A stretch of 64,000 bases of DNA, from positions 14,309-78,308 of IMG/VR virus record IMGVR_UViG_3300010400_000002. One strand, written 5' to 3'. Within the stretch, counting starts at the first letter, position 1. Every line of letters begins with the position of its first letter. The notes beneath the pieces were generated by a model that was given only the letters and a program-made list of their open reading frames with translations, had not been told where the DNA came from and did no database searches. Shown here piece after piece: positions 13,738-45,049 of this stretch. The translations under genes and the position numbers were made by a program. Origin of the DNA: a virus.

Positions 13738-16700
13738 TGCCAAATGGACAAGATATAAAATTACCAAAGGGAGCGACACTTGTTACTTCGCCTCCTGTGT
13801 CCGGCATTAAATTACCGAAAGGTGCAACGCTTATAAATAATAAATCCGATGAATCACAAGCGAAAGTGCCGCAAGTGCAAGAAGAAAAAAATGGTGTAAA
13901 TGCGCAACCAACAGACGCTACGGCAGCGAATAGCACTACGGAAGTACCGCAAAAAGAAAATAACAGCATTCCAAAAAATTTGGACAATCACATTAAGGCG
14001 CTTCAAAATGTTAAACAGAATATTAGCATCTACTCGCAATCAATTCCAAAGAATGCTCCATTAACATTACCTACCAAAGAACAAGAGGCGCAGATAGAAC
14101 CTGCAATTGTAGCAAGCGGAGGAAGAAATGCTACAATAGAGGATGATGGAAATATTATTGACTATAGTAAGCCAAACCAAATTACTCAGTGGGCACAATC
14201 GCAACTTGAAAAATTAAATGCGATTCCTGCATTTGATGGAACACCAACCGGAATGGGTATTCCTGATGTTACACCAATTACACCAATTATTGTTGCTGGT
14301 AAAGAAGTTGCAAAATCAATACTTGGAAGTATAAGCGGACTGGGCGAAGGAATTCAGCAGGCAACAAAAGGAAGTGAGGATATAAGAATACCATCTTCAC
14401 AAAATAGATTAGCTGCATTGGAACTTCCGGCAGGATTAGTAAAATCAGGATTTAGCGGATTAAGTTTGGTGGTGCCGCAAGTTGCTGCATTTAATCTTGG
14501 AATACAGGAAGCGGGAAATGTACTTCCTGAAAAATGGGTGCAAGCAGCGATGTCACCCGTGTCAACTATTTTGCAAGAAACACATGGCATAGTAAACTTC
14601 AATGGTAAAATTTATGATCTCGGAAATAGCGATGGAGTAAAGGCTGCTGCTGAATTAACTGACCTTGTATGGGATATATTTTTATTCAAGAAAGCGGAAG
14701 GGTTGGGTAAAAAGATAATTCATAATGAAGTTCTCACTCCTATTGAACAAGCTGAGGCGAATAAGATTATTGATGAAGGTATCAAAGATTTTGGAACACC
14801 ATTCAAGAAAGAAACTTTAAATAAAATTCCTCCTGAATTACCGGATGCAGTAAAGATAAAAGTTGCTCCATTGATTGAGGAGAAAGAAAAAATAATTGAT
14901 GGAAAGCAAAATATTGATGTTGGATTACATCAGTTAGAAGATCAAAAAATTGCTGACATCAATGAACAAATAATTGACCACGTTGCGCCACAACCATTTA
15001 CTGTTTCTGAATTTGAAGTTCACCCAAAAGAAAACATCTCTGCTGTTGTTGGTAAAGATGCTGAATACAAAGGAAAGATCGGTGTGATCGAAAAAGACGA
15101 TGAAGGCAATTTTGTTTTCAATGATGGCAAACGACAACAGATACTTCCGGTAGAAAATAAAGTAGAGCCGACAGAAACAATTTCCGACTCGGGATTGACA
15201 GTAGCCAAAGAGAAAATTTTCAAAGGAGAAATTCCGGTAATCGTGAAGCAAGGTGATGTTGAATATCGTAACAGGAAATACTTTGTATCGTTCACCAATG
15301 ATCCGAAAGATGCAACAGGAACGAGAGTATATGAATATACTAAGGACAAAAATTTACTTCCTGTTGGCAAGCCTAAAAAAGTCAATGAAATAATTCAACA
15401 GTTCAAAGACGAGAATGGAATTGCAACGAAGCAATCACCATTTGAATTTCCGAAGTCAAAAGAAGGAGAACCAACAATCTCAGAGGGTGACGGGACTGCT
15501 AAAGGGGAGTTGCAAGTTCCGTTATCCTCTGAACCTAAAACGACCGACAATGTTTCCGACAAACCACCAGTGTCAGATGAGCGACAACAGGAGTCAGCAC
15601 CAATCGGTGAAGCTCCCAGTGCCGAAACCGTCGTTAGCGAAGAGGTTAAAGCGCCGGAGGAAAAAGTAGATGAAGCCAAACAGTTCGCTATTGACATGGT
15701 GAACAATGATCTTGTTGAGCCAGGGAATACTTCTCGAAGTGAAATGACAATCAAGGGTAGTGGCAAGAAAGCAAGTGCGAACATCGAACCACGACTTGAC
15801 TTAGGAATGAGTAGTGCCGATAAGAACAAAGCTATTGCTGACATCAAAAAAGGAAACTACGAAACAGCACCAGCTAAGAAGTTAATTCAAAAGTTAAGTG
15901 AGTTCCATAAGAATGATGCGTTTGAGATGATACGCGGAACGGGTGGTAATGCTGATCGGTTTATGGAACTGACGCTCGAAGAAATGCGTCATCAGATTGA
16001 GGACATGAAAGAATTCAAGGCAGCCGAAGCCATGAAGGGAATACCGGATGAAGAAGCGCAGGCGATAGAAGATTTTGTCAGACCTTTTGAAGATGAGCAT
16101 GGAAACATTAATTTTGAGGAAGCGATAAAACATCTTGATGAAATCGGATGGACATTACCTGAAGGACATGAGGAAAGAATTTCGGACTTAATCAAAAAAA
16201 TAAAAGATGAAACAGGAAAGCGAGAAGTCCAAAAAGGCGAAGCAAATTCTTCTGGGTCTGTTAGCAGCGAAGCGCCGGAAGGAGTCATCAAAGATGAAAA
16301 GCCCCGCACAAGAGAACAAATCCTCCAAGAGTTAGAGCAGGCTAAAGCGGAGCACGCTACCGCAGAGAGTGACTACAACAAAGCCAAAGATGCTCTCGAC
16401 AAAAATCTACAAGGCAAGCAGGGTGATTTACTACAAGGTAATGAGCAGAAGTTGTTTGATGACACTTCTGAAATGAAGTCCAAAGCGGATGCAGCTAAGA
16501 AAACTCTTGACGCTGCAAAAGAAAAACTCGATGCCGCACAGAAGTTGGCTGATGATAATTTACCAGGGCAACAGGAGATACTTAGTCTTTCACATGGACT
16601 CACCCCTGAGCAAATAAATGAAAGTGCCCAATTCGTTGTTAAGTTTGAACGGGATGAATTACCTACCGATATAAAACTTGCAAAAGAACAACAAGAAAAA

Positions 16701-29180: not shown

Positions 29181-30581
29181 ATGAAGCCAATGATGAAAAT
29201 TTATACCAACCCCGCCAAGTTCTCCGGCAAACCGAAGCCCATAAAAATGAAGTATGGCGTTTCTATGCTCCCACAGAATGGCGGCAATGGACCTGCTCCG
29301 TATCTCGACACCCCGTGGATGGATAAGATGAAAGAACTTTACAACCTTTCATACATAAGCGGCGCGGCAGGCAGTATTGTTATCTATACCAATTACATCT
29401 CTCCTCCCGGCGTAAGCATAGGATTCAATGGCAATCACCAAGATTGTATTGACAGGCATGTTGACTTTAACACCGTTGTCTCTGGAAGATTGGCAAAGCC
29501 ATTTTCTTACGGCTGCTTCGAGAGTGACATTCAGGTAGCGGGGCAATTAGGGAAAGCATACTTGCCGGGAATAAATTGCAGCACACCCATTCTTGATGGT
29601 CGCCGTACCACGCCACCGGCACCATACAACTTCAACCGCTTGCACAGCCAAGTAGATTACATCCTGAGTTTAGCAGCTACAAAAGGAGTAAAGATTATCG
29701 GGATAAAGTGGAATGAAGAATCACAGGGAAAGGGTAATGCTGACGTGTTCCCCACTATTCAGTCACTCGTAGATGTAACGGCAGAAGGCGCTCGTTATGT
29801 TCATGGAAAGAATTCTTCCATCATTAACATCACCGATGCACAAATCACTGATGATCCGAATTGCAGATTCATAAACATGAATGCAACGATGGGCACTATT
29901 CCGTTTGCAAGCTGTCACCGAAACTATTTTCAGGTGCAGAAGCAGATGAATGACTGGACGGATATCATCACCCGCGTAAGAGAATTCCATTCTGTTACTG
30001 ATAAGTTCCGTCAACAATTCCCCGGTGGTCAGGAAGAACTTGCACAGCAACAATTTGGAGACATTGATGGCATGGATGTCAGTTTAAATATCTATTCCGG
30101 CAAAGTGGGGCAGGGAATTGTGATGAGCAGTATTCTCCTTCGCGCTATTATGGAAACGGCAACAGATGATGTGATTGCTTTCTTCACACATTCACAGTCT
30201 AATGGACTCATGAGCGGCACCGGAAGAAACTTTTCTGTGAAGCCTTGTTTCTATATGATCAAAGCATTACAGGGCGCATTGGTGAATGACGGACTGATTG
30301 ATGTGCAATTACAGAGTATTGAAGGCGCAGAAAATCTTGTGTATGCAGGAGTGCAACGCGGTTCTGTTTCTGAAATCTATTTTGTGAATGAAGGCAAGCC
30401 GGGAGTTGACCGCGATATAGTGATACCCACTGTTCAGGTGAATGATCACCACAAATCCGTCGCAGTAGTTGATGGGTGGGGTGGAGATTTAGCAAGCGAT
30501 ACAGCAACACAATACACACAGCCTACTGGTGATTCTATTACTATCAAGGCGGGATATTGCATAAAGGTTGTGACTCAATAA
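29181..30581 (+). CDS. glycoside-hydrolase-like protein
   Basis: IIGIKWNEE (clan GH-A-like NE), TIM-barrel-like pattern, C-terminal beta-sandwich (EIYFVNE...TIKAGYCIKVV). Confidence 0.4.
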   Translation: MKPMMKIYTNPAKFSGKPKPIKMKYGVSMLPQNGGNGPAPYLDTPWMDKMKELYNLSYISGAAGSIVIYTNYISPPGVSIGFNGNHQDCIDRHVDFNTVVSGRLAKPFSYGCFESDIQVAGQLGKAYLPGINCSTPILDGRRTTPPAPYNFNRLHSQVDYILSLAATKGVKIIGIKWNEESQGKGNADVFPTIQSLVDVTAEGARYVHGKNSSIINITDAQITDDPNCRFINMNATMGTIPFASCHRNYFQVQKQMNDWTDIITRVREFHSVTDKFRQQFPGGQEELAQQQFGDIDGMDVSLNIYSGKVGQGIVMSSILLRAIMETATDDVIAFFTHSQSNGLMSGTGRNFSVKPCFYMIKALQGALVNDGLIDVQLQSIEGAENLVYAGVQRGSVSEIYFVNEGKPGVDRDIVIPTVQVNDHHKSVAVVDGWGGDLASDTATQYTQPTGDSITIKAGYCIKVVTQ

Positions 30582-30620
30582 TTTGTTACTTCAATAAGTT
30601 TCACTTTCAAACTAAACGCT

Positions 30621-30884
30621 ATGACTACCCTCAACAGAATAGAAAGCGACCGATGGAAAATGTATATCCAGCAGGTTAACGAAACCGGAGATCACGGTGA
30701 CTTCTGGGAAATGATGTTGAATAGCTCAAGCATTTCAGCACCATTATATAACTCATGGAGATCGGAGTTTCTAACGTGGAAAGGGATCTACGATGATGAC
30801 AGAAAATTGTACATCACCAAACCTGATGATACCACATACAAGGAAGATGGTATCTCCAATTTTCCGGTACCACCTTCAAAATAA
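30621..30884 (+). CDS. hypothetical protein
   Basis: 87-aa ORF with A-rich leader. Confidence 0.5.
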   Translation: MTTLNRIESDRWKMYIQQVNETGDHGDFWEMMLNSSSISAPLYNSWRSEFLTWKGIYDDDRKLYITKPDDTTYKEDGISNFPVPPSK

Positions 30885-30889
30885 TCCTG

Positions 30890-31270
30890 ATGCTTATAAC
30901 AGACATTGCCCATGAGATAGTATTTCAGTGGAATACCCACATCAAAAAATCGGTGTTGCTTATGACTCCACTAAGTGCTACAACATTTTTGGTGACACTA
31001 ATTGTAGGGCAAGTTCTCTCTGTCAATGATGCTTTTCCTAATTGGCTTGTAGGAATACTAACCGCAACCATTACTGTTCTTCTTTCTATTATTGCCTTTG
31101 TCGCTGTACAGGTTTATCTCATTGTGAAAAAAGAGATCAGCAGTAATAATGTCAGAATGGATAAGCTTCTTGAAGTGCAAATAAAACATGGCAATGAGCT
31201 AATTCGATTGAGTACTGAAGTAGAAAACTTAAAAGAGGATGAGCAACCAAAGAAAAAAAGACTGGGATGA
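30890..31270 (+). CDS. membrane protein (holin-like)
   Basis: Two hydrophobic helices, coiled coil, basic C-terminus. Confidence 0.5.
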   Translation: MLITDIAHEIVFQWNTHIKKSVLLMTPLSATTFLVTLIVGQVLSVNDAFPNWLVGILTATITVLLSIIAFVAVQVYLIVKKEISSNNVRMDKLLEVQIKHGNELIRLSTEVENLKEDEQPKKKRLG

Positions 31271-31734
31271 AAATTACTTACATCGTTGGAGTATTTCTGC
31301 TCACATCACTACTTGAAATGTGGTGGCACATCAAAACATATCCTGCTACTCTCACTCCAATGGAACTGTATCAAGCGCGGGTTCATACATACAATCTATC
31401 TATGAGTATGGCACAAGAGCTTCTTTACATTACTATGCTGATTTTTATTCCAGGGCTGTATGAAAAGACATTGGCAATTATCTGTATTGTGTTTCAAGGA
31501 CTGAATGTTGCAGACTGGTATTTCGATTTCAATTGGAGAACAACAAACTATGACTTTGCGCTCTTCACTGTTTCAATTACGCTCATTATTTTGATGATGC
31601 GATTCAAAGTGTATGAACGAATAGACATCTTCACTCATAATATTTTGCATATACTCTTCAGGAATGGAACGATACAAATTGCGGGGAGGGTGATTAACAT
31701 TGAGCGAAAGAAGAAAAATAAATCATCATTGTAA
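31267..31734 (+). CDS. four-TM membrane protein
   Basis: Four hydrophobic segments, basic tail. Confidence 0.55.
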   Translation: MKITYIVGVFLLTSLLEMWWHIKTYPATLTPMELYQARVHTYNLSMSMAQELLYITMLIFIPGLYEKTLAIICIVFQGLNVADWYFDFNWRTTNYDFALFTVSITLIILMMRFKVYERIDIFTHNILHILFRNGTIQIAGRVINIERKKKNKSSL

Positions 31735-31743
31735 ACAACCAGT

Positions 31744-32145
31744 ATGGAGGAAGATCACTTAGAAGCAGCCGCGGCAGAAGAGAAATTTTCATTCGATCTT
31801 CTTTTGGCAGTGTTTCAGAAGTTGCCGGATGCGATAGTTATCCTTAATGAGGACAGAAAGATATTCAGGGTAAACCCACAGGCAGAGCTATTGTTTGGGT
31901 ATAATGAAATAGAATTAAAAAATAAACCCATTGAAATTCTTGTACCGGACTCACTGAAAGAACGCCACACTACGCATACTCAAACCTATGTAGATTCACC
32001 CTCATTACGTGCGATGGGAAGCGGTATTGAGTTGAAGGCAAAGAGAAAAAACGGAACAGAAATTCCTGTTGAAATAAATCTTAGTCCTGTGTCTACGGTT
32101 CGTGGTTTGTATGTGATTGCTGTAATCAGAAGAAAAGTAAAATAA
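31744..32145 (+). CDS. stand-alone PAS-domain protein (FixL-like)
   Basis: PDAIVILN..G-equivalent..VNPQAELLFGY..EL....IEILVP...RH...R.MG.G.EL.AKRKNG.EIPVEINLSP. Confidence 0.9.
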   Translation: MEEDHLEAAAAEEKFSFDLLLAVFQKLPDAIVILNEDRKIFRVNPQAELLFGYNEIELKNKPIEILVPDSLKERHTTHTQTYVDSPSLRAMGSGIELKAKRKNGTEIPVEINLSPVSTVRGLYVIAVIRRKVK

Positions 32146-32154
32146 GTTTCTTGC

Positions 32155-32496
32155 ATGATAAGTTCCGTTTGGATTGGAATTACGGCAATAGCACTTGGCT
32201 TGATAGGTGGTTATATCTCTTTGCGAGAACGATTAGTGAGATTGGAAGTGAAGATTGATGTATTCTGGCGTGACGTAAGTTATAGTTCTGCAAAACTTCT
32301 CCACAAACCGCACCCTGACAGTGCACGTATGGATTACCTCATAGATAAATACCTTGATGACAAACTGAATCAATCGGAGATAGTAGAATTCATTGGCAAA
32401 CTAAAGGAACTTTTTGAAAACAAAGACGCAGAAACAGCAGAAAGACAATCGGCAGCGATACTTCTTGCGGCACTGAGGCAGCGATACAAAGTGTAA
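32155..32496 (+). CDS. single-TM protein
   Basis: N-terminal TM followed by LRERLVRLEVKID coiled coil. Confidence 0.55.
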   Translation: MISSVWIGITAIALGLIGGYISLRERLVRLEVKIDVFWRDVSYSSAKLLHKPHPDSARMDYLIDKYLDDKLNQSEIVEFIGKLKELFENKDAETAERQSAAILLAALRQRYKV

Positions 32497-32525
32497 ATTT
32501 GATTACTAACTTTAAAACCAAAACT

Positions 32526-32771
32526 ATGAAACTACTTTCAATCTTACTCGCAATCTTCGCTGCACCATTCATGCAGGTAATCGGATTCTTCATCGTCATC
32601 TGTATTGTTGCATGGGCATTATGGTGGCTGCTTACCACGGTAATCATTCCTCCGGCTCCGGCACCGCCGCGACCATTTAAGAACCTGGGCTACATCATCT
32701 ATGTGATCGTGGTGGCACTTATGTTTATTTGGTGGGTCAGTTTCGCCTTCGGGTTGGGGATATTTAATTAG
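32526..32771 (+). CDS. small membrane protein (2-3 TM, Pro-rich loop)
   Basis: Hydrophobic helices flank PPAPAPPRP. Confidence 0.55.
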   Translation: MKLLSILLAIFAAPFMQVIGFFIVICIVAWALWWLLTTVIIPPAPAPPRPFKNLGYIIYVIVVALMFIWWVSFAFGLGIFN

Positions 32772-32807
32772 TGGTGGCAAATTTTTTAATCCTACATTTA
32801 CAATCTC

Positions 32808-33179
32808 ATGGAGAAAGAAAACATCATCATTCACGTTCACAATGAAGGAATCATTGAGATAGGAATGATGTTGCAGAAGATTCTCCACTCACAAGAAATT
32901 ATTCTTCAAACTCTAAAACAAATTCAAATGACAAACGAAGAACTCAAAAAAGGACTCGATGATGTAAAAGCTACTCTCGACAGTATCGGTACAGAGGTTG
33001 ACAAAGTTGCAACCGAAACCAACACATTGAATTCAAAGATCGCTGATCTCGAAACTCAAATCGGGAATCTCGGTACTGTACCACAAGAATTACAGGATGC
33101 TTTCAATGCGGTAAAAGATCAAGCCGGTGTTGTTGCATCTAAGGTTCAGGCGGTGGATGCTCTTGTGCCTGACGCGTAA
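32808..33179 (+). CDS. coiled-coil protein (start may be 32928)
   Basis: Heptad pattern; last + strand gene before the terminator. Confidence 0.55.
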   Translation: MEKENIIIHVHNEGIIEIGMMLQKILHSQEIILQTLKQIQMTNEELKKGLDDVKATLDSIGTEVDKVATETNTLNSKIADLETQIGNLGTVPQELQDAFNAVKDQAGVVASKVQAVDALVPDA

Positions 33180-33207
33180 AGATTGTGTGTGTATGTGTTT
33201 AGGAGAG

Positions 33208-33236
33208 CGGGGTGGCAAATCAGCACCCCGTTTTTT
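33208..33236 (+). terminator. intrinsic terminator of the late operon
   Basis: CGGGGTG-GCAAATCAG-CACCCCG followed by TTTTTT. Confidence 0.8.
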
Positions 33237-33300
33237 ATTGAGGCAACTCAATCTGAAAGAGAAGTTTCTTTTGCTTCGGCGCAGTATCAATTCGGGGGGC

Positions 33301-33333
33301 AAAAAAAATGGATGATGTTTAGTCACCCATTTT
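33301..33333 (-). terminator. intrinsic terminator closing the RAMP/array transcript
   Basis: Minus strand AAAATGGGTGA-CTAAACA-TCATCCATTTT-TTTT; the stem is complete (one G-U) only on the minus strand. Confidence 0.75.
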
Positions 33334-33340
33334 AAACAGT

Positions 33341-33935
33341 ACCATAGCGGTGCGAACCCAACCATGCCAGCGCCTAACAGAACCATATCCAACAATACCG
33401 AGCCTTACACGATCACACCATACCGGCTTTCCAGCCCGTTCCATGCCATACCTCTACTTACATCAGCCAACCATACAGGACTAAAGCAAGCCATTGCTAA
33501 CCTATCCCGACCATACCGACTCTTTCGAGTCCGTACCCAACCGAACCATACCGAACACAAGCGAACCGCGCCGACGCCGAAGCTAACAATACCATTCCCG
33601 ATACTACCGCGCTCGACATAAGCTGACCAATCCATACCAAACCGGAGATAATTTTCCCGTTCCTTACCATACTCAACCGAACATTACCTAAGCCAGCCGT
33701 ACCCTGCATAACCGAAGCTGACCGAACCGACTGAAATTAATCAGTCCGTACCACGCCGTACACTACCATTCCAAACAAAATTGAACCGTATCCCGCCATG
33801 CCGAATCGAACCTTACCACAACACACGGAACACCACCATGCACTACCATACCGGCTTTTAAAAAGCCCGCACCAAACCAAAACTCAGCTAACCGGACAAA
33901 ACCGAACTCCACATAACCCCGCCCCGGCAAACCGG
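33341..33935 (-). ncRNA. array of six GGY-NN pentamer tracts separated by hairpins (putative gapped guide RNAs, VIPR-like)
   Basis: 103 in-phase pentamers by hand count, 55 with exact GGY and most others one mismatch away; tracts 33871-33935, 33750-33854, 33661-33730, 33535-33645, 33440-33519, 33341-33426; five junction hairpins. Confidence 0.85.
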
Positions 33936-33938
33936 AAT

Positions 33939-34565
33939 TTAATCTTCAATGACATCATAATTCTTAATAGCAAATCTTCCATATGACGGTCTGAAATCTC
34001 CAACGCCGCACAATCTTCCTGCCTGTACCAACGTGTCAATAAACAATGCCACATCAATATACTCAGGCAACTGAATCATGAATTGACATTTGCAAGTCCA
34101 TCCTGATTTTAATGCAGGACGAGTGCGATTAATGCCTGACCGCTGAATAACAACACGCCGACGATCTTCATAATCCCATTCTTTCTTTCCTAAAGAGCAA
34201 AGTGGAGTTAATGAGATTACTCCTGCTTTGAATAAGTCCATTGCCGACTTACGAGGCGAGCGAGGGTCTTGTTTGAACTTTGATGCAGCGATACAACTCA
34301 TGCGAAAATATTCACCCGGGATACAGAGAAATCCTTTATCATCCCGATAGACGTAGCTTTCGAGATCATCAGTTTTTTTAGCAGCAGAATTTTTTTTCGC
34401 TTTCGCTTTTTCATCTACTGCCTCTGCATTCCATCGGTGAAACAGCATGTCGGCTGTACCTTGAAATGTTACTTCAATCATGAACGGTTCTGAATGTTCA
34501 ATGACTTTCTTTGCGCCGTTTGTTGGCTCACTCACATTCTTAGCGAGTGTTTTTGCTGTACTCAT
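33939..34565 (-). CDS. solo RAMP/Cas7-like protein (Vipr-like)
   Basis: RAMP beta1 (MIEVTFQGTADMLFH), motif-II-like GFLCIPGEYFRMSCIAA, RTRP, C-terminal Gly-rich loop AGRLCGVGDFRPSYGRF. Confidence 0.8.
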   Translation of the reverse strand: MSTAKTLAKNVSEPTNGAKKVIEHSEPFMIEVTFQGTADMLFHRWNAEAVDEKAKAKKNSAAKKTDDLESYVYRDDKGFLCIPGEYFRMSCIAASKFKQDPRSPRKSAMDLFKAGVISLTPLCSLGKKEWDYEDRRRVVIQRSGINRTRPALKSGWTCKCQFMIQLPEYIDVALFIDTLVQAGRLCGVGDFRPSYGRFAIKNYDVIED

Positions 34566-34577
34566 AATTATGAAATT

Positions 34578-34683
34578 AAAAAGCCCCTACGACAAATGGT
34601 TCAAACCTTCACCGTTAGGAGAAAGTACATCTGCTTTCAGGGCTGTTTGGAAATGTCGTGATTGACACGATGAAAGTTTGAAC
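34578..34683 (-). promoter_or_regulatory. structured 5' leader of the RAMP gene
   Basis: 17-bp stem GTTCAAACTTTCATCGT/ACGGTGAAGGTTTGAAC; enclosed ACGACA and AGCCC are complementary to TGTCGT and GGGCT just upstream of the start codon. Confidence 0.6.
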
Positions 34684-34687
34684 GAGG

Positions 34688-34720
34688 CAAATATAAGGTG
34701 AGGGTATTACTAAATGCAAA
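34688..34720 (-). promoter_or_regulatory. Bacteroidota housekeeping-sigma promoter
   Basis: TTTG-N21-TATATTTG matches the -33/-7 consensus. Confidence 0.75.
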
Positions 34721-34827
34721 TCAGGATATAAACATTCGATTCACATAAATTGTCCTTTGTCAATCCATAGTGGCTTGTCGCCGTTCATCATGGAAAGATA
34801 CTTCTGCTTAATTTTTTTGGCTCTCAT

Positions 34828-35424
34828 TTATATTTCAATTGAGTTATTCACTTCATTGCCTAATAAATCCCATCCCTCATATTCATAATTAGGGAACATT
34901 CCTTCACGTTCCCTTGCGAATAACTCCAATCGTTTAGGCTCTTCGAAAACCCTGTCAGTGACCTTCATTATCAATTCGCGGAAGTAATGCGGTTTCTGTG
35001 AGTGCTTACCAACTTTCTGTTCGTGAAGATCACCGAAGTCAAATTCCGAAGCATAGAAATTACAGGTTTGTTCTCTGAAGGCAGTAACATTTCCTTTAAT
35101 TCCTAATAGCAGATGTTCGCATTGACCACGAAACCAATATCCCATTCCCTGACTCATTACCTTTCGCCACGTCATCATTGTCTTATACTTAAATCCCCAC
35201 GCAGCCATTACCTCAAAGGCTTCCGGCAATAGCGGAACGGTTGCCCCTAAGAACAACACCGAATTTTTCTCAGAAGGAATTTGCATTGCCTTGATATCAT
35301 CAAGCGGCATCGTTTCATATTTTGTATGAGCGCCACTTCCTTCCGGCTGATCTCCATTAGTTCGCCCTGTCTTTTTATTCTCGTAAGACCACGGCGGATC
35401 TGCGTAAATGACATTGTACTTCAT
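34828..35424 (-). CDS. MT-A70 family N6-adenine methyltransferase
   Basis: VIYADPPW, WGFKYKT, GMGYWFRGQCEHLLLG, HSQKP, LELFAR. Confidence 0.9.
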   Translation of the reverse strand: MKYNVIYADPPWSYENKKTGRTNGDQPEGSGAHTKYETMPLDDIKAMQIPSEKNSVLFLGATVPLLPEAFEVMAAWGFKYKTMMTWRKVMSQGMGYWFRGQCEHLLLGIKGNVTAFREQTCNFYASEFDFGDLHEQKVGKHSQKPHYFRELIMKVTDRVFEEPKRLELFAREREGMFPNYEYEGWDLLGNEVNNSIEI

Positions 35425-35640
35425 GCCGAAAGTTTTTTCACTCTAATATCCACAATCCACCTGAAAAAGCACAGGGAGAGAATCTTAAATTTCCCGTCCT
35501 TACAGTGATGGACTCCGTGGACGAGGCTGAACTTTAGGATGGAGGGGTTGGGTAATAATTTCATGGTGTATATTTAGTGATCTTAAACGTAAAAAACTCC
35601 TTCCCCTTCGCCACGATCTCCTTCTCCACGACAAGCCGGA

Positions 35641-36378
35641 CTAACACACTTTCTTCTGAACATGAATACCATAAGAGTCCGTTATTTTATGGCATGGCTT
35701 ACATAATGTTAATCCGTTATCCACATCCCATAATAACTTACAGGAAAGAGCATCAATAGTGTCCTTCAAATTGAATTGATAGATAATATTTGCTAAACTT
35801 ATTTTATGATGGCATTCCAACCTAACATTATTTTTACCACAGTTTTGGCAAGTGAAATTATCTCTCTTATAAACACTCAATCTCCATTGATTATATTCAA
35901 CCAATCTTCTTATCTTATCTTTAATAATATTAAACCCTTTTCCCTTCCCATATCTCCAATGATTCGTTCCGCTAATTCTAAGCCTCGCTTCTAAAGTATA
36001 CTTTTTGTTTCGGGTGAACGCCTTTCCTTTCATAAAGGCACTGTGCGCTGGTCTCTGTCTACCTAATTTAAAAACATGATAGCATTGTTGAGAACAGAAT
36101 TTTCTTTTTAGTGATTTGGAAAATTTAATATCTCTATTACAGATGGAGCATTTTGATTTCACCTTTCCTTTTCCAAAATCATTAGTCATACATATGACGT
36201 CACAATATATCCGCTTACATTTCTTTTTACAGTACCTACAATTATTTAGAATAGTTATCTTTCTTTTTCTTCTTTTTCTTATTCTTGAGCATGTTTCCGA
36301 ACAAGTTGTTCTGTTATTAAGTTGACATGGAAATACTTTGAATGGTGCATTACAAACAATACAGTTCTTAGTAATCAT
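35641..36378 (-). CDS. HNH endonuclease with Zn-ribbon repeats
   Basis: Start MITKNC; CxxC repeats; WRLSVYKRDNFTCQNCG...LECHH...NGLTLCKPCH. Confidence 0.85.
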   Translation of the reverse strand: MITKNCIVCNAPFKVFPCQLNNRTTCSETCSRIRKRRKRKITILNNCRYCKKKCKRIYCDVICMTNDFGKGKVKSKCSICNRDIKFSKSLKRKFCSQQCYHVFKLGRQRPAHSAFMKGKAFTRNKKYTLEARLRISGTNHWRYGKGKGFNIIKDKIRRLVEYNQWRLSVYKRDNFTCQNCGKNNVRLECHHKISLANIIYQFNLKDTIDALSCKLLWDVDNGLTLCKPCHKITDSYGIHVQKKVC

Positions 36379-36379
36379 C

Positions 36380-36505
36380 TTAAAAAAGATAGCCGCTGGC
36401 AATGGTGGCTTATCAACACAATCCGTAGGGAAGGAGTTGCACCAAAGCAGCGGCGTTTTTTGTTGAAGATGTTCATGGATTGAATTGATAAGCATTGCAA
36501 ATTTA
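36380..36505 (-). promoter_or_regulatory. promoter box and structured leader of the HNH gene
   Basis: TAAATTTG (36498-36505); interleaved pairings GCTTATCAA/TTGATAAGC and GCCGCTG/CAGCGGC. Confidence 0.5.
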
Positions 36506-36506
36506 A

Positions 36507-37010
36507 TTAAACTTCTTTTATTTCAATTTTATTAATTGCAAACATCAACTTCTTCTTCAGTCGGTAAACTGCTAACTTCCTTGTCATCTTCGACTTTACA
36601 TCTTCAACAACCTTAACTCCTTTCTCAAAATAACTGAAGTCACTCCGATAATAGCACACCTGTTGACCATTGATTATTAGCGGAAATTCTTCCTGTAACT
36701 GCAAATCCGTAATCTCACGATTCTTCTGCATATCGGATAGAATCAAGTAACGGCGGTACTCTTTCTCCGAATCGAATTTCAATCCTTCTTTGGTGACTAC
36801 CTTCTTGTTTCGGTACTTGGGTAATTTCTTTGATTCCTGCACCCTTGCTTTAACGCTGTCAGGCGACTTCGCTTTGGAGATAGCAGCGGTGGGTTTGGGG
36901 CTTGCGTGGCTCAGAGGGCTTGTTTTGACGTTCTTTCTGTCCAACAAGATTTCATCGAGGGATTTGCCCTTGTGGTATTGGTGATACTCTTCAACCGACA
37001 ACACTGTCAT
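36507..37010 (-). CDS. DUF1064-family PD-(D/E)XK nuclease
   Basis: KYRNKK..G.KFDSEKE.RRY..L...I.DLQLQ..F, YRSDF, VVEDVKS, YRLKKKL. Confidence 0.8.
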   Translation of the reverse strand: MTVLSVEEYHQYHKGKSLDEILLDRKNVKTSPLSHASPKPTAAISKAKSPDSVKARVQESKKLPKYRNKKVVTKEGLKFDSEKEYRRYLILSDMQKNREITDLQLQEEFPLIINGQQVCYYRSDFSYFEKGVKVVEDVKSKMTRKLAVYRLKKKLMFAINKIEIKEV

Positions 37011-41494: not shown

Positions 41495-42454
41495 TTATCG
41501 TGTTCTTATGAAGTTTTCCAATTCCTCAATATCCCCCTTCTCCCGTGTAACCATCTCCTTATATTTCTCAACATCAATCTGCTGCTGTATGTGAGATTCG
41601 ATAATCGAAGTAAGAACCTGGGGCTTCAGCGCATCTACTTCCCAGCAGGTCTTTCCAAATTTAGCAATGTACTTATCACTTCGTGAATCAGTAAGTTTCG
41701 TAGGGTTAGGTGGCAGTTTGTATTTTTTGATTTGCTGCATCGTCAAACCAATCTGGATGATTTGAAAAATGTCAGAAGCAACCAAATGGTACTCTCCCTG
41801 CTCAATCATGAAAGTTAATCGTTCACTTATATCACGAACCATATCTAACCCACTTGGGTCGTGATCTCCAAAATAAAGAATCGTAGTCATCCCTTCGTGA
41901 AGGCTGTTATTTAAAATGCGATTGTAGGCACTATACATCGCACTGGAAGAACTGTAACCTTTGTTAATGATTAGTTGGATGTGATACTTTTCGGTACTGC
42001 GTCGTAGTATTCCTGCAAGTGCATCTTTCTCGCTCCAAAGTTCAACGTGATTTGATTGTCCTTCTTGTCGGTCTAACCTATATTGGTCAATCGTGTCCTG
42101 TAACGCATGTTCAACACTGTTAACCGAATAAGGAATGTACGGTACTCTTCCGCGATCTTCAATAGCACCCCAATCAATGGTTCCACTGTAACGGCAATCA
42201 TCAACAATATCTCCCAATTTTTTATACGCTGTGATATGGTTTATGAATCCTTCTACGTGACCTACGAATTGATAATGAAGCTGCCGGAGAGTTAGAATAT
42301 AACCTTCTGCTGCGTACTCATCTACGATGGATATTATGTTGGCTACAACATCCTCCTTTCTTGTGCGCCACCATTTGATACTGCCGTCATCAAATTTGCA
42401 GCATACATTTATAGCGCCCGTTAATTTCCTATCTTCAAATTTCTCTTTAGCCAT
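41495..42454 (-). CDS. TOPRIM-domain protein (topo VI-A/DUF2399-like)
   Basis: Start MAKEKF; TLRQLHYQ, VELWSEKDAL, KGYSS, YFGDHDPSG, WEVDAL. Confidence 0.8.
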   Translation of the reverse strand: MAKEKFEDRKLTGAINVCCKFDDGSIKWWRTRKEDVVANIISIVDEYAAEGYILTLRQLHYQFVGHVEGFINHITAYKKLGDIVDDCRYSGTIDWGAIEDRGRVPYIPYSVNSVEHALQDTIDQYRLDRQEGQSNHVELWSEKDALAGILRRSTEKYHIQLIINKGYSSSSAMYSAYNRILNNSLHEGMTTILYFGDHDPSGLDMVRDISERLTFMIEQGEYHLVASDIFQIIQIGLTMQQIKKYKLPPNPTKLTDSRSDKYIAKFGKTCWEVDALKPQVLTSIIESHIQQQIDVEKYKEMVTREKGDIEELENFIRTR

Positions 42455-42459
42455 TTCGA

Positions 42460-42543
42460 AGCGAAGGGGGAACTCGAATCCCCGACCTATGCAGACCCAC
42501 TCCACGTAGAAACTGCGTCGCTCTACCAACTGAGCTACTTCGC
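42460..42543 (-). tRNA. tRNA-like RNA with aberrant extended anticodon arm (identity unassignable)
   Basis: Acceptor GCGAAG/CTTCGC, D-arm GCTCAGTTGGTAGAGC, T-arm GGGGATTCGAGTTCCC; 18 nt enclosed by GCAG/CTGC; no CCA. Confidence 0.65.
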
Positions 42544-42780
42544 TACAGGTTAGCTTTGCCTGTATTCATCAGAGAGTTTCCTTCTCCTCACTTTCAACGT
42601 TACAGGTGACGCGCCTTGCTTACATGAGTTCGCTTCGGACTCCATCCAATCTTACGATTGCTCATACGGAAAAAATCTTTAAAAAGAAGGATGCGAATGG
42701 TCACGGCAAAACTGTAATCTGTTCGCTGCAGTCGCACCCTCAACCGGAGTGCTTAACCTCCGGTGTATGGTTTGTAAGTT

Positions 42781-43413: not shown

Positions 43414-43818
43414 TTAATTGGAATTAACACGGTTAAACTCATTCTTCAAGGCACTAACAGAAGTCCTCACAAAATCCAACTGGTGAGTAATAGTCCGGCT
43501 TAATCTCTCTGCAACATTGTAAGCATACTCCGATTCGCTGCACTTAGCGGTGATATAATCCTTCACCACACTTGCCGGAACCCACTCCAACCGTCGCGCC
43601 TCCACGTTGAAAACAAATTGCTCATACGCTTTTGCTTTCTTATCACTCCACACCTTTTTGAATTCTGCCATCTGCGAATTGGTATAAGCCATGTAACCGG
43701 ATAACTGAGCTCCGTACTCTATCCATTGGTCAATAGTGGATAGTGACTGCATCGTTTCGGAGCAGAGGATACTTTCGATCTTTTTTAATTCTTCCAGGTG
43801 GTCAATCATCGGATTCAA
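43414..43818 (-). CDS. hypothetical helical protein of the recombination module
   Basis: ERLSRTITHQLDFVRTSVS..KNE, a Bacteroidota-phage motif. Confidence 0.55.
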   Translation of the reverse strand: MNPMIDHLEELKKIESILCSETMQSLSTIDQWIEYGAQLSGYMAYTNSQMAEFKKVWSDKKAKAYEQFVFNVEARRLEWVPASVVKDYITAKCSESEYAYNVAERLSRTITHQLDFVRTSVSALKNEFNRVNSN

Positions 43819-45049
43819 CTTTAGAGGAATAGAAATTAGACCATTCTTCTTGTGACTTAAACTTACTGTGATATTCCTTACCGTTCCAAATTAATTTCCA
43901 ATCATTCCAATCAACATCATCAGATGGAAGATCATAAGCATCTACACCGAAAGTATTAGCACCTAATGAGGTTGCAAATTGTAATGTAAAAGGAAAACAT
44001 TTCAGGTTGTTTGCTGCAAGTATTTTAAAGCCATGCTCTAAAATATCAATAACTTCTTTCTCAGATTTGTCATTTCCTAAAATCATTTTCAATCGTCCTG
44101 AGTGAATGAAGTTATGACAGTAATGACACAATGGTTCAATGGAAAGTATCTCACATATACCAGTGCGATAGTCAATTTTCCAAAACTCATGTGCTTCTAA
44201 CCACTCATGTTTTTTTGCTTGGGATTTATGAATGCCGCAGGCAGCGCAATGATAGTCAGTTGAAGCATATACTAATTGGCGTTCACTATTCCACCAATCA
44301 TCTCCCATAATTTCTCTTGGGGCAACTCCATGAAGCGGTTTAGGGATATGAGGGTGGCACAGTATTTCAGGTTTAAGAATTTTCCTTACCGGCGTTCCTG
44401 ATTTTACGATCTCATTCCAATCATCAATCATTCCATGCACTTTGATGAAGTCCACAAATCCTTTAAGTGAATGGATAAGTTTCGTTTCGTAAGCTGCATC
44501 CCACTCGAAAGGAAATTCTTCATGGGTGATGGTAGCTGATAGTTCTTTCTTCTCCTGAATGAAAAATACATCGTAACAGAACATCGGAACATCAGCCATG
44601 AACATATACCATAGGTGCTGTGTCTTATCCATGTACGCTTCATAGGAAGGCTTGGTGCGCGTTGTTTTAAAGTCGTGAATAATCCCGGGGCACAAGCAAT
44701 CTACTTTCCCCCTCACGTTGCAGATGATTCCGTTGACCTCAATTTCTTTGTTCACCCAAACTTCTGTCGCATTGGGTGTTGGTAGCGTTTGATGGAAGTC
44801 AGTGAGAACTTTGAGAACATCATTTGAAAGAAATTCTGCCTCTACGGTAATCCCTCCATACGCTTGCGCATATTCGTCGAATGGGTTTTCAAGAAACTTA
44901 TGTACCGCCGTTCCAAAGTCTTTCTCAAAAGTTTTCTGATCTCTCCCTTCAAGGTAGTCAATAAACTTCTGTTGGTCAAGTCCCCACTTTTCAGCAAGGA
45001 AGTCATCGAACCGTTCCAACTTAGACACGGAGATATTAAGCGATAGCAT
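43802..45049 (-). CDS. PD-(D/E)XK exonuclease fused to an HNH-like domain
   Basis: ISVSKLE, FGTAVH, GKVD...IHDFKTT...QHLWY; C-terminal HCAACG..LEAHEFW..PLCHYCHNFIH. Confidence 0.75.
   Translation of the reverse strand: MLSLNISVSKLERFDDFLAEKWGLDQQKFIDYLEGRDQKTFEKDFGTAVHKFLENPFDEYAQAYGGITVEAEFLSNDVLKVLTDFHQTLPTPNATEVWVNKEIEVNGIICNVRGKVDCLCPGIIHDFKTTRTKPSYEAYMDKTQHLWYMFMADVPMFCYDVFFIQEKKELSATITHEEFPFEWDAAYETKLIHSLKGFVDFIKVHGMIDDWNEIVKSGTPVRKILKPEILCHPHIPKPLHGVAPREIMGDDWWNSERQLVYASTDYHCAACGIHKSQAKKHEWLEAHEFWKIDYRTGICEILSIEPLCHYCHNFIHSGRLKMILGNDKSEKEVIDILEHGFKILAANNLKCFPFTLQFATSLGANTFGVDAYDLPSDDVDWNDWKLIWNGKEYHSKFKSQEEWSNFYSSKVESDD

Follow-up and report, generated by a model that had tools for sequence, protein, structure and literature searches.

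The five-base repeats at positions 33341-33935 of the stretch of viral DNA analysed here (64,000 nt, referred to as the window, to which all coordinates apply unless stated otherwise) very probably belong to a VIPR locus, carried by a complete 78-kb phage with a distantly crAss-like head protein. VIPR (Viral Interference Programmable Repeat), a phage weapon resembling CRISPR, became known in 2026 through three preprints of one laboratory (bioRxiv 10.64898/2026.04.26.720920, 10.64898/2026.04.26.720927 and 10.64898/2026.10.15.759431). According to the first two (.720920 and.720927), the system is composed of a phage-encoded minimal RAMP protein, termed Vipr, and of vrRNAs in which 9-16 YNNGG repeats precede a structured 3' tail. 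Double-stranded DNA is recognised by the NN pairs with one base skipped between pairs, the skips fall mostly on wobble positions, natural targets are found on both strands, and the outcome is a transcriptional silencing of rival phages and satellites. All three preprints describe a code that fits the codon periodicity and blocks mutational escape. In the phage studied here we observe a periodic array, an adjacent gene whose product is related to Vipr in sequence and fold, a linkage between this gene and such arrays in related loci, and in-frame matches of the array to foreign genes when one base is skipped, together with their controls.

The IMG/VR virus record that contains the window (as its positions 14,309 to 78,308) comprises 78,308 bases with direct terminal repeats and is rated complete. 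A soil DNA metagenome is the sole listed sequencing run containing the stretch and may be its source. The major head protein is ca. 24% identical to its counterparts in crAss-like phages, and a blastn search with 32000-35500 yielded no match to an INPHARED phage. The array occupies the gap between a plus-strand block and a minus-strand replication module. Annotated proteins of the plus-strand block are solely structural, namely the major head protein and the product of the last gene (ending at 33179), a weak tape-measure-like match. On the other side, the upstream neighbour of vipr, 262 nt apart and on the same strand, is an MT-A70 family DNA methyltransferase gene (34828-35424, minus strand), an adjacency not kept in related loci. 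A Bacteroidota-type promoter upstream of vipr is a lead only, as the window contains four copies of its motif where 3.7 are expected and thus shows no enrichment. Two further features of the minus strand are recorded for completeness. At 42458-42544, ARAGORN reports a tRNA whose anticodon loop is read as four bases (tcta) and left unassigned. This tRNA overlaps the end of an open reading frame (41495-42529, minus strand) and may be of the suppressor type or an otherwise unusual phage tRNA. A 415-residue protein (43802-45049) carries an HNH endonuclease match (phrog_5200) and a weak match to phrog_1706, a PHROG labelled 'CRISPR/Cas system associated' (E 2e-6).

The plus strand of 33341-33935 reads as RCC-NN pentamers and the minus strand as GGY-NN. 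Across 33400-33870, 11-12 of the 20 pentamers in every 100 nt carry CC at the same phase; the genome-wide mode of this count is 2, and nowhere else in the 78,308 bases does it reach at least 8. The spacings from CC to CC peak at 5, 10, 15, 20, 25 and 30. Parsed in register on the minus strand, the array resolves into runs of 13, 25, 33, 29, 11 and 6 pentamers, the frame slipping by 1-4 nt in only a few places. Of the 117 in-register units, 67 (57%) have GG on the minus strand, i.e. CC on the plus strand, and in 56 of these 67 a pyrimidine comes next. The other 50 units (43%) mostly carry a single substitution with the T kept (TGT 14, GCT 9, GAT 4, AGT 3). The initial annotation of this DNA had described each pentamer as RCC-NN; the five-base rhythm is indeed real and far beyond chance, but with GG in little more than half of the units the wording was overstated. 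The NN positions of this array are near random (0.17 and 0.05 bits), and the array is unique within the whole phage genome. Tandem Repeats Finder, which is blind to the array because its units differ, reported nothing there; in 30000-37000 it found two short unrelated repeats and no CRISPR-type direct repeats. No Rfam family was matched in the whole window at gathering thresholds, nor on 33150-34900 at permissive thresholds or in six related loci, and hammerhead ribozymes are therefore absent from these arrays. In the direction of the minus strand the locus can be divided as follows.

34688-34720, minus strand: candidate promoter of Bacteroidota type, located upstream of vipr by a match to the pattern TTTG ... 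TAnnTTTG
33939-34565, minus strand: vipr gene, minimal Cas7-like RAMP protein of 208 residues, from the profile match to SUSP1 Vipr and the fold
33324-33938, minus strand: vrRNA array, about 117 in-register GGY-NN pentamers and five embedded hairpins, beginning 1 nt past the vipr stop codon
33874-33938, minus strand: vrRNA-A guide of 13 units, 6 of them canonical, matching the final 13 codons of DUF2188 genes
33853-33873, minus strand: vrRNA-A tail, GGTGC, a G and hairpin H1, from the fold; the target match ends here
33758-33852, minus strand: vrRNA-B region, 19 pentamers, no target match
33729-33757, minus strand: tail GGCGT GGTAC and hairpin H2, whose 3' arm is the first unit of guide C
33669-33733, minus strand: vrRNA-C guide of 13 units, 7 of them canonical, matching an M78/IrrE-like peptidase gene at its HExxH site
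33644-33668, minus strand: tail GGTAA GGAAC and hairpin H3, whose 3' arm is the first unit of guide D1
33579-33648, minus strand: vrRNA-D1 guide of 14 units, 7 of them canonical, matching a BT4734-like primase gene
33518-33578, minus strand: pentamers past a 1-nt slip at 33573, then GGTTG GGTAC and hairpin H4, from parse and fold; an extended tail or else an additional short guide
33448-33517, minus strand: vrRNA-E guide of 14 units, 7 of them canonical, matching the gene of an HTH_17 excisionase-like regulator
33425-33447, minus strand: tail GGCAT GGAAC and hairpin H5, from the fold
33339-33424, minus strand: vrRNA-F region, 11 + 6 pentamers with a 1-nt slip and without closing hairpin, from the register parse

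The vrRNAs thus listed follow a common plan, in which 13-14 guide pentamers lead into one or two units that look constant (GGNNN GG[A/T][A/G]C) and a small hairpin forms the end. Different in sequence, the five hairpins are alike in architecture, comprising outer helix, internal G/G loop and inner stem; their folding energies lie 1.5-4 sd below those of shuffled sequences, with -10.9 kcal/mol for the H1 tail compared to a shuffle mean of -4.5. The target matches of guides A, C and D1, described below, end one or two units ahead of each hairpin, in guide C directly before the pentamers GGTAA GGAAC, and guide and tail are therefore separable. Guides C and D1 start inside the 3' arm of the preceding hairpin, the match of D1 beginning at tctCC. 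About half of the units in the matched guides have no GG, and their NN pairs match equally well.

The gene adjoining the array is, as judged from a profile match and a structural model, a Vipr homologue (33939-34565, minus strand). A profile built from 36 family members (A1) detected, in an hmmsearch of PDB chains, a single solved structure, the 'SUSP1 Vipr protein' (PDB 36pp, chain 36pp_D; E 2.9e-10), and the alignment revealed a C-terminal G-loop motif, AGxLxGVGDxRPxxGRF, common to the profile and SUSP1 Vipr. Vipr proteins are RAMPs with a single RRM, a G-loop and a thumb. The AF2 model of the 208-residue protein (pLDDT 83.9) resembles Csm3 and type VII Cas7 (Foldseek E ~2e-7, TM about 0.53). 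The protein has no Pfam domain and its gene is assigned to phrog_4652, whose function is unannotated. Homologues number 6629 at E<=1e-3 and are mostly 60-68% identical, the closest relatives (P0002-P0005) reaching 81-85%; the gene itself is intact and highly conserved. This Vipr clade is very common in metagenomes and represented by one phage only in INPHARED, Phage DSL-LC04 (OR003939.1, 22435-23043, minus strand; 65% identity). Its gene bears the label 'helix-turn-helix transcriptional regulator' there, likely a mis-annotation.

The linkage between gene and array was inspected in 19 IMG/VR loci with vipr homologues of 51-65% identity and GC contents of 39-66%. A GG-phase signal on the vipr strand is present in all 19, mostly just upstream of the gene and sometimes downstream, and a stricter parse found at least four perfect units in a row in 18 of the 19, flanking vipr and never within it. 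Among the 649 pentamers collected from these relatives, in which GG stands at 100% by construction because the parse demanded it, the third base is a pyrimidine in 93% and each N carries 0.02 bits. BLASTP at 1e-5 among 14 loci revealed no common neighbouring open reading frame, the near-identical pair L007 and L008 excepted, and thus no conserved vap gene beside vipr; nor is any other Cas-type neighbour conserved beside it across the related loci, and the Cas7-like gene of our phage stands alone. In the high-GC locus L002 (2380-2960), and likewise in L003 and L004, the near-perfect GGY-NN tracts are broken four times by a structured element of ~60 nt with related sequence (GGGCTG...CAGC...TTCTTCCC...) and no Rfam match, which is probably the vrRNA tail or processing element of that clade.

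The targets were sought by matching the NN pairs in order with one wildcard base between pairs (gap 1). The idea behind this search, that each NN represents codon positions 1 and 2 with the wobble base skipped, stems from the initial annotation and is borne out by four guides, all of which match in frame with the skipped bases on codon position 3 in all four target families. The three tracts that had been decoded there into well-known motifs all recur in real sequences. Guide A, decoded as ...KNSYGNDPYPPKG followed by a stop codon, matches DUF2188 genes with all 13 residues identical. Its 10-NN seed finds ten IMG/VR contigs, all in frame at the ends of DUF2188 genes (...SYGNDPYPPKG-stop), and the full match comprises 26 of 26 bases in two of them (L036 and L044); Pfam assigns the target genes to DUF2188 at E 1e-24 and 3e-28. 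Upstream of the site the ten targets have a median identity of ~54%. Within the site every wobble position varies, while positions 1-2 of eleven codons are identical, and the guide therefore ignores synonymous change, in agreement with the predicted insensitivity to synonymous escape mutations.

Guide C matches an M78 peptidase gene, and the observed peptide, MHELYHVLYDLED, differs at one residue from the string read initially. The 20-base seed finds three IMG/VR records, one of which is classed as a complete provirus, and subsequently Prevotella merdae and an Odoribacter MAG; over 13 units 25 of 26 bases agree in frame, and all carriers, viral, Prevotella merdae and Odoribacter, encode ...FSLMHELYHVLYDLED... 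in frame. The target gene codes for a 408-residue M78/IrrE-like peptidase (PF06114 E 4.8e-5; PADLOC PD-Lambda-2_B E 1.3e-18), adjoins a RhuM gene and is hit at its HExxH site. As a separate observation, the surrounding block of four genes, encoding a 796-residue protein, RhuM, the 408-residue M78 protein and a 167-residue protein (the first and the last unassigned), is identical in a viral contig (L023, 1310-6539) and in Prevotella merdae (L034, 699-5929). Of the proteins in the block, the M78 protein alone is recognised by a PADLOC PD-Lambda-2 model, and a complete defence system is not shown.

Guide D1 matches 28 of 28 bases in two metagenome contigs, in frame with the peptide DYIIRLARYCNMKG, although seven of its 14 units are degenerate. 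The target is a BT4734-like primase gene (PF08800 E 1.6e-8, phrog_18375) adjoined by a D5-like helicase gene. Guide E, whose tract had been decoded as ...ISFSQIGSKIYYR, gave no matches in viral contigs with two exact 10-NN seeds; its target appears once mismatches are allowed. With up to three mismatches, 26 of 28 and 25 of 28 bases are matched in two of 301 Bacteroidales genomes, in frame with the peptide ISFSQ[IV]GSKIYYR in HTH_17 proteins (PF12728, E 8e-9 and 1.7e-9), the very family that had been named for this tract. Each of these genes is directly followed by a BT4734-like_N/PriCT_1/DUF3987 primase gene. Guide B found no counterpart: an exact 10-NN seed of its 3' half had no match in viral contigs, and its 3' 13-NN and 5' 14-NN patterns, with up to three mismatches allowed, had none in sets of 201 and 301 genomes of Bacteroidales. 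Sliding scans of the target records and loci analysed here gave no match above chance for guide F, and in such scans the other guides did not converge on the guide C provirus or on other target loci. Judged from these sequence matches, the targets point to Bacteroidota; the best of them lie in gut Bacteroidales and proviruses of isolates, and the phage itself is from soil. As guides on highly conserved motifs match many genes, a match alone does not prove a selected target.

The specificity of the one-base skip is reflected in several controls. When the dinucleotides of seed A were run against the same collection, gap 1 gave ten matches and gaps 0 and 2 none, which covers these two sizes of the gap comparison proposed along with the decoding. 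The backwards pattern of guide E found nothing. Three other 20-base gap-1 seeds likewise gave no match, and chance matches at such length are therefore rare. They do occur: seed C also matches Bacillus sp. T33-2 and a Patescibacteria MAG (L032 and L033), with no extension past the seed. Since these chance matches sit in open frames too, in the NNx register (...QEFYQVLYE...), the frame alone is weak, and it is the extension beyond the seed that separates real from chance matches. Within the genome of the phage the best match of the array reaches 16-17 of 20 bases, alike for gaps 0-3, i.e. no self-target rises above chance; this agrees with the earlier impression, gained by eye, that no matching peptide is present among the open reading frames of the window. 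A DUF2188, M78 or BT4734-like gene was not found in the phage, which accords with the non-self targets suggested on that basis. The sole HTH_17-like stretch of the phage (57332-57439, minus strand; 71640-71747 of the complete record, G000) is sub-threshold (E 3.9e-4, 17.7 bits), and in the self-scan it is unmatched by guide E.

On the basis of these data and in analogy to the SUSP1 system, we propose a scenario in which the locus would be transcribed from the minus strand and the transcript processed, with the ~615 nt after vipr on the same strand encoding at least six vrRNAs. Vipr protomers would polymerise on each vrRNA, one per five-base unit, and in the resulting filament would bury GGY and expose the NN pairs. 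The latter might bind to double-stranded DNA, with two bases read and one skipped, and transcription would be blocked. DNA binding and silencing are extrapolated here from tests on the SUSP1 protein, no more than a distant relative of this Vipr. As the skipped base is the wobble position of the codon, each guide would recognise a conserved peptide motif irrespective of synonymous codon choice. The four matched guides would aim at non-self genes typical of resident mobile elements, namely a DUF2188 gene, the M78/ImmA-like peptidase gene of a provirus, a BT4734-like primase gene and an HTH_17 regulator gene directly upstream of such primases.

The same components might instead act post-transcriptionally, the complex pairing with messenger RNA and not with double-stranded DNA, which we regard as unlikely. 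The plus-sense NN string corresponds to the coding sense in four of four target families, and the vrRNA is consequently antisense to the mRNA in each of them; moreover, the nearest solved folds are those of the RNA-targeting type III Csm3 and type VII Cas7. However, four of four in the coding sense would arise by chance with a probability of 1/16, which makes it weak evidence, and for SUSP1 VIPR binding to double-stranded DNA, silencing from either strand and an R-loop triplex have been demonstrated, with natural targets on both strands (bioRxiv 10.64898/2026.04.26.720920 and.720927). The view of the initial annotation that the minus-strand RNA pairs with the coding-sense sequence of foreign genes holds as regards the sense of the NN string, whereas the published VIPR binds double-stranded DNA and silences transcription.

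The 50 of 117 units without GG raise the further question whether the array might be a decaying relic, whose non-GG units load Vipr poorly, in a locus on its way out. Replacement of GGY in the guide abolished silencing in SUSP1, according to the legend of fig. S12 of the VIPR preprint, and the relatives L018 and L002 possess near-perfect GGY runs. Nevertheless, decay appears improbable, even more so than pairing with RNA: the 5-nt register persists across the degenerate units, the substitutions are non-random, being mostly one change with the T kept, and the vipr gene has remained intact and highly conserved. Furthermore, degenerate NN pairs match the targets as well as canonical ones, most clearly in D1 with its 28 matched bases and half of its units degenerate. 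That the repeats are not guides at all but a TRAP-like protein-binding sponge or leader, a two-tier G-quadruplex array or an array of origin or centromere sites is hardly credible, since, despite the suggestive triplet-plus-spacer geometry and the GG-N3 spacing, such functions predict no in-frame, one-skip peptides of four foreign families, for which gaps 0 and 2 give nothing. A CsrA-type sponge, a plus-strand rut site, primase-site repeats and a pentapeptide-coding frame were also considered and dropped upon the target matches.

Reading the locus as VIPR, we note that the wobble-skipping idea, correct for this DNA, is not new, as it is published in the three 2026 preprints. Its value here lies in the fact that the published one-base-skip code was readable from raw sequence in a clade remote from the tested systems of E. 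coli and Pseudomonas, and that four concrete guide-target pairs are now supplied (DUF2188, M78/ImmA-like peptidase, BT4734-like primase and HTH_17 regulator). The ten DUF2188 targets provide a clean natural illustration of how a code with gaps withstands synonymous escape. Hints as to how flexibly Vipr recognises RNA come from the non-GG units that are tolerated and from the layout without vap. Going further, one may tentatively ask whether GG is dispensable at about half of the positions in this Vipr clade and VIPR is at the same time an anti-defence tool, a combination that we consider possible and rather doubtful. If true, the TGT, GCT, GAT and AGT units would imply a looser rule of RNA recognition than the GGY requirement of SUSP1, and the guide panel would constitute an attack on a satellite-like or integrative element with an HTH_17 and BT4734 primase module, while also silencing an M78 gene similar to gene B of the defence system PD-lambda-2.

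Among known systems, TRAP-type RNA-binding rings recognise 11 G/UAG triplets with spacers of 2-3 nt. The constant triplet and 2-nt spacer of the array resemble this geometry; a TRAP-like system was rejected, as no TRAP-like protein is present and the spacers carry information, matching foreign genes. Class 1 CRISPR-Cas systems, in which Cas7 or Csm3 forms a filament on the crRNA, are closer. The protein shares their RAMP fold (Foldseek E 2e-7), and its complex would, by analogy, share the principle of their backbone, one protomer per RNA segment of fixed length and base pairing interrupted periodically. In contrast to these systems the locus has no repeat-spacer array, its period is 5 with two paired bases compared to 6 with five, and its guides are genome-encoded and fixed whereas theirs are acquired spacers. 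We have therefore not placed it in CRISPR-Cas, for which it offers a lone Cas7-like gene and no repeat-spacer array.

The reference VIPR systems of the preprints are of type II and stem from Escherichia phage SUSP1 and a Pseudomonas fulva prophage, and the VIPR preprint distinguishes seven types and six vap accessory genes, one of which typically, depending on the type, adjoins vipr. Compared to SUSP1, the Vipr of our phage represents a distant clade (profile E 2.9e-10; phrog_4652), and its array carries short hairpin tails instead of a pseudoknotted tail of ~40 nt. Unlike in the published systems, the whole array lies downstream of vipr, starting one base past the stop codon, 43% of its units are not GG, and a conserved vap gene is missing; as the preprint lists six vap genes for seven types, the locus may belong to a vap-less type. 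The preprint also mentions staggered arrays (fig. S18), arrays interspersed with hammerheads and an 'internal degeneracy' of the repeats, and guides C and D1, which start in the 3' arm of a hairpin, resemble its staggered arrays. The local peculiarities accordingly comprise the lack of a conserved vap gene, the 43% of non-GG units with matching NN and the small hairpin tails. Features in common with the published VIPR are a lone phage-encoded Cas7-like Vipr with the same G-loop motif, a GGY/NN pentamer array co-oriented with vipr, a structured 3' tail behind guides of 13-14 units, a code that skips one base, namely the wobble position, and targets in other mobile elements, including a gene of excision or regulation, with no self-targets. 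It is thus a genuine VIPR with peculiarities of its own, and adds no new principle to those already described.
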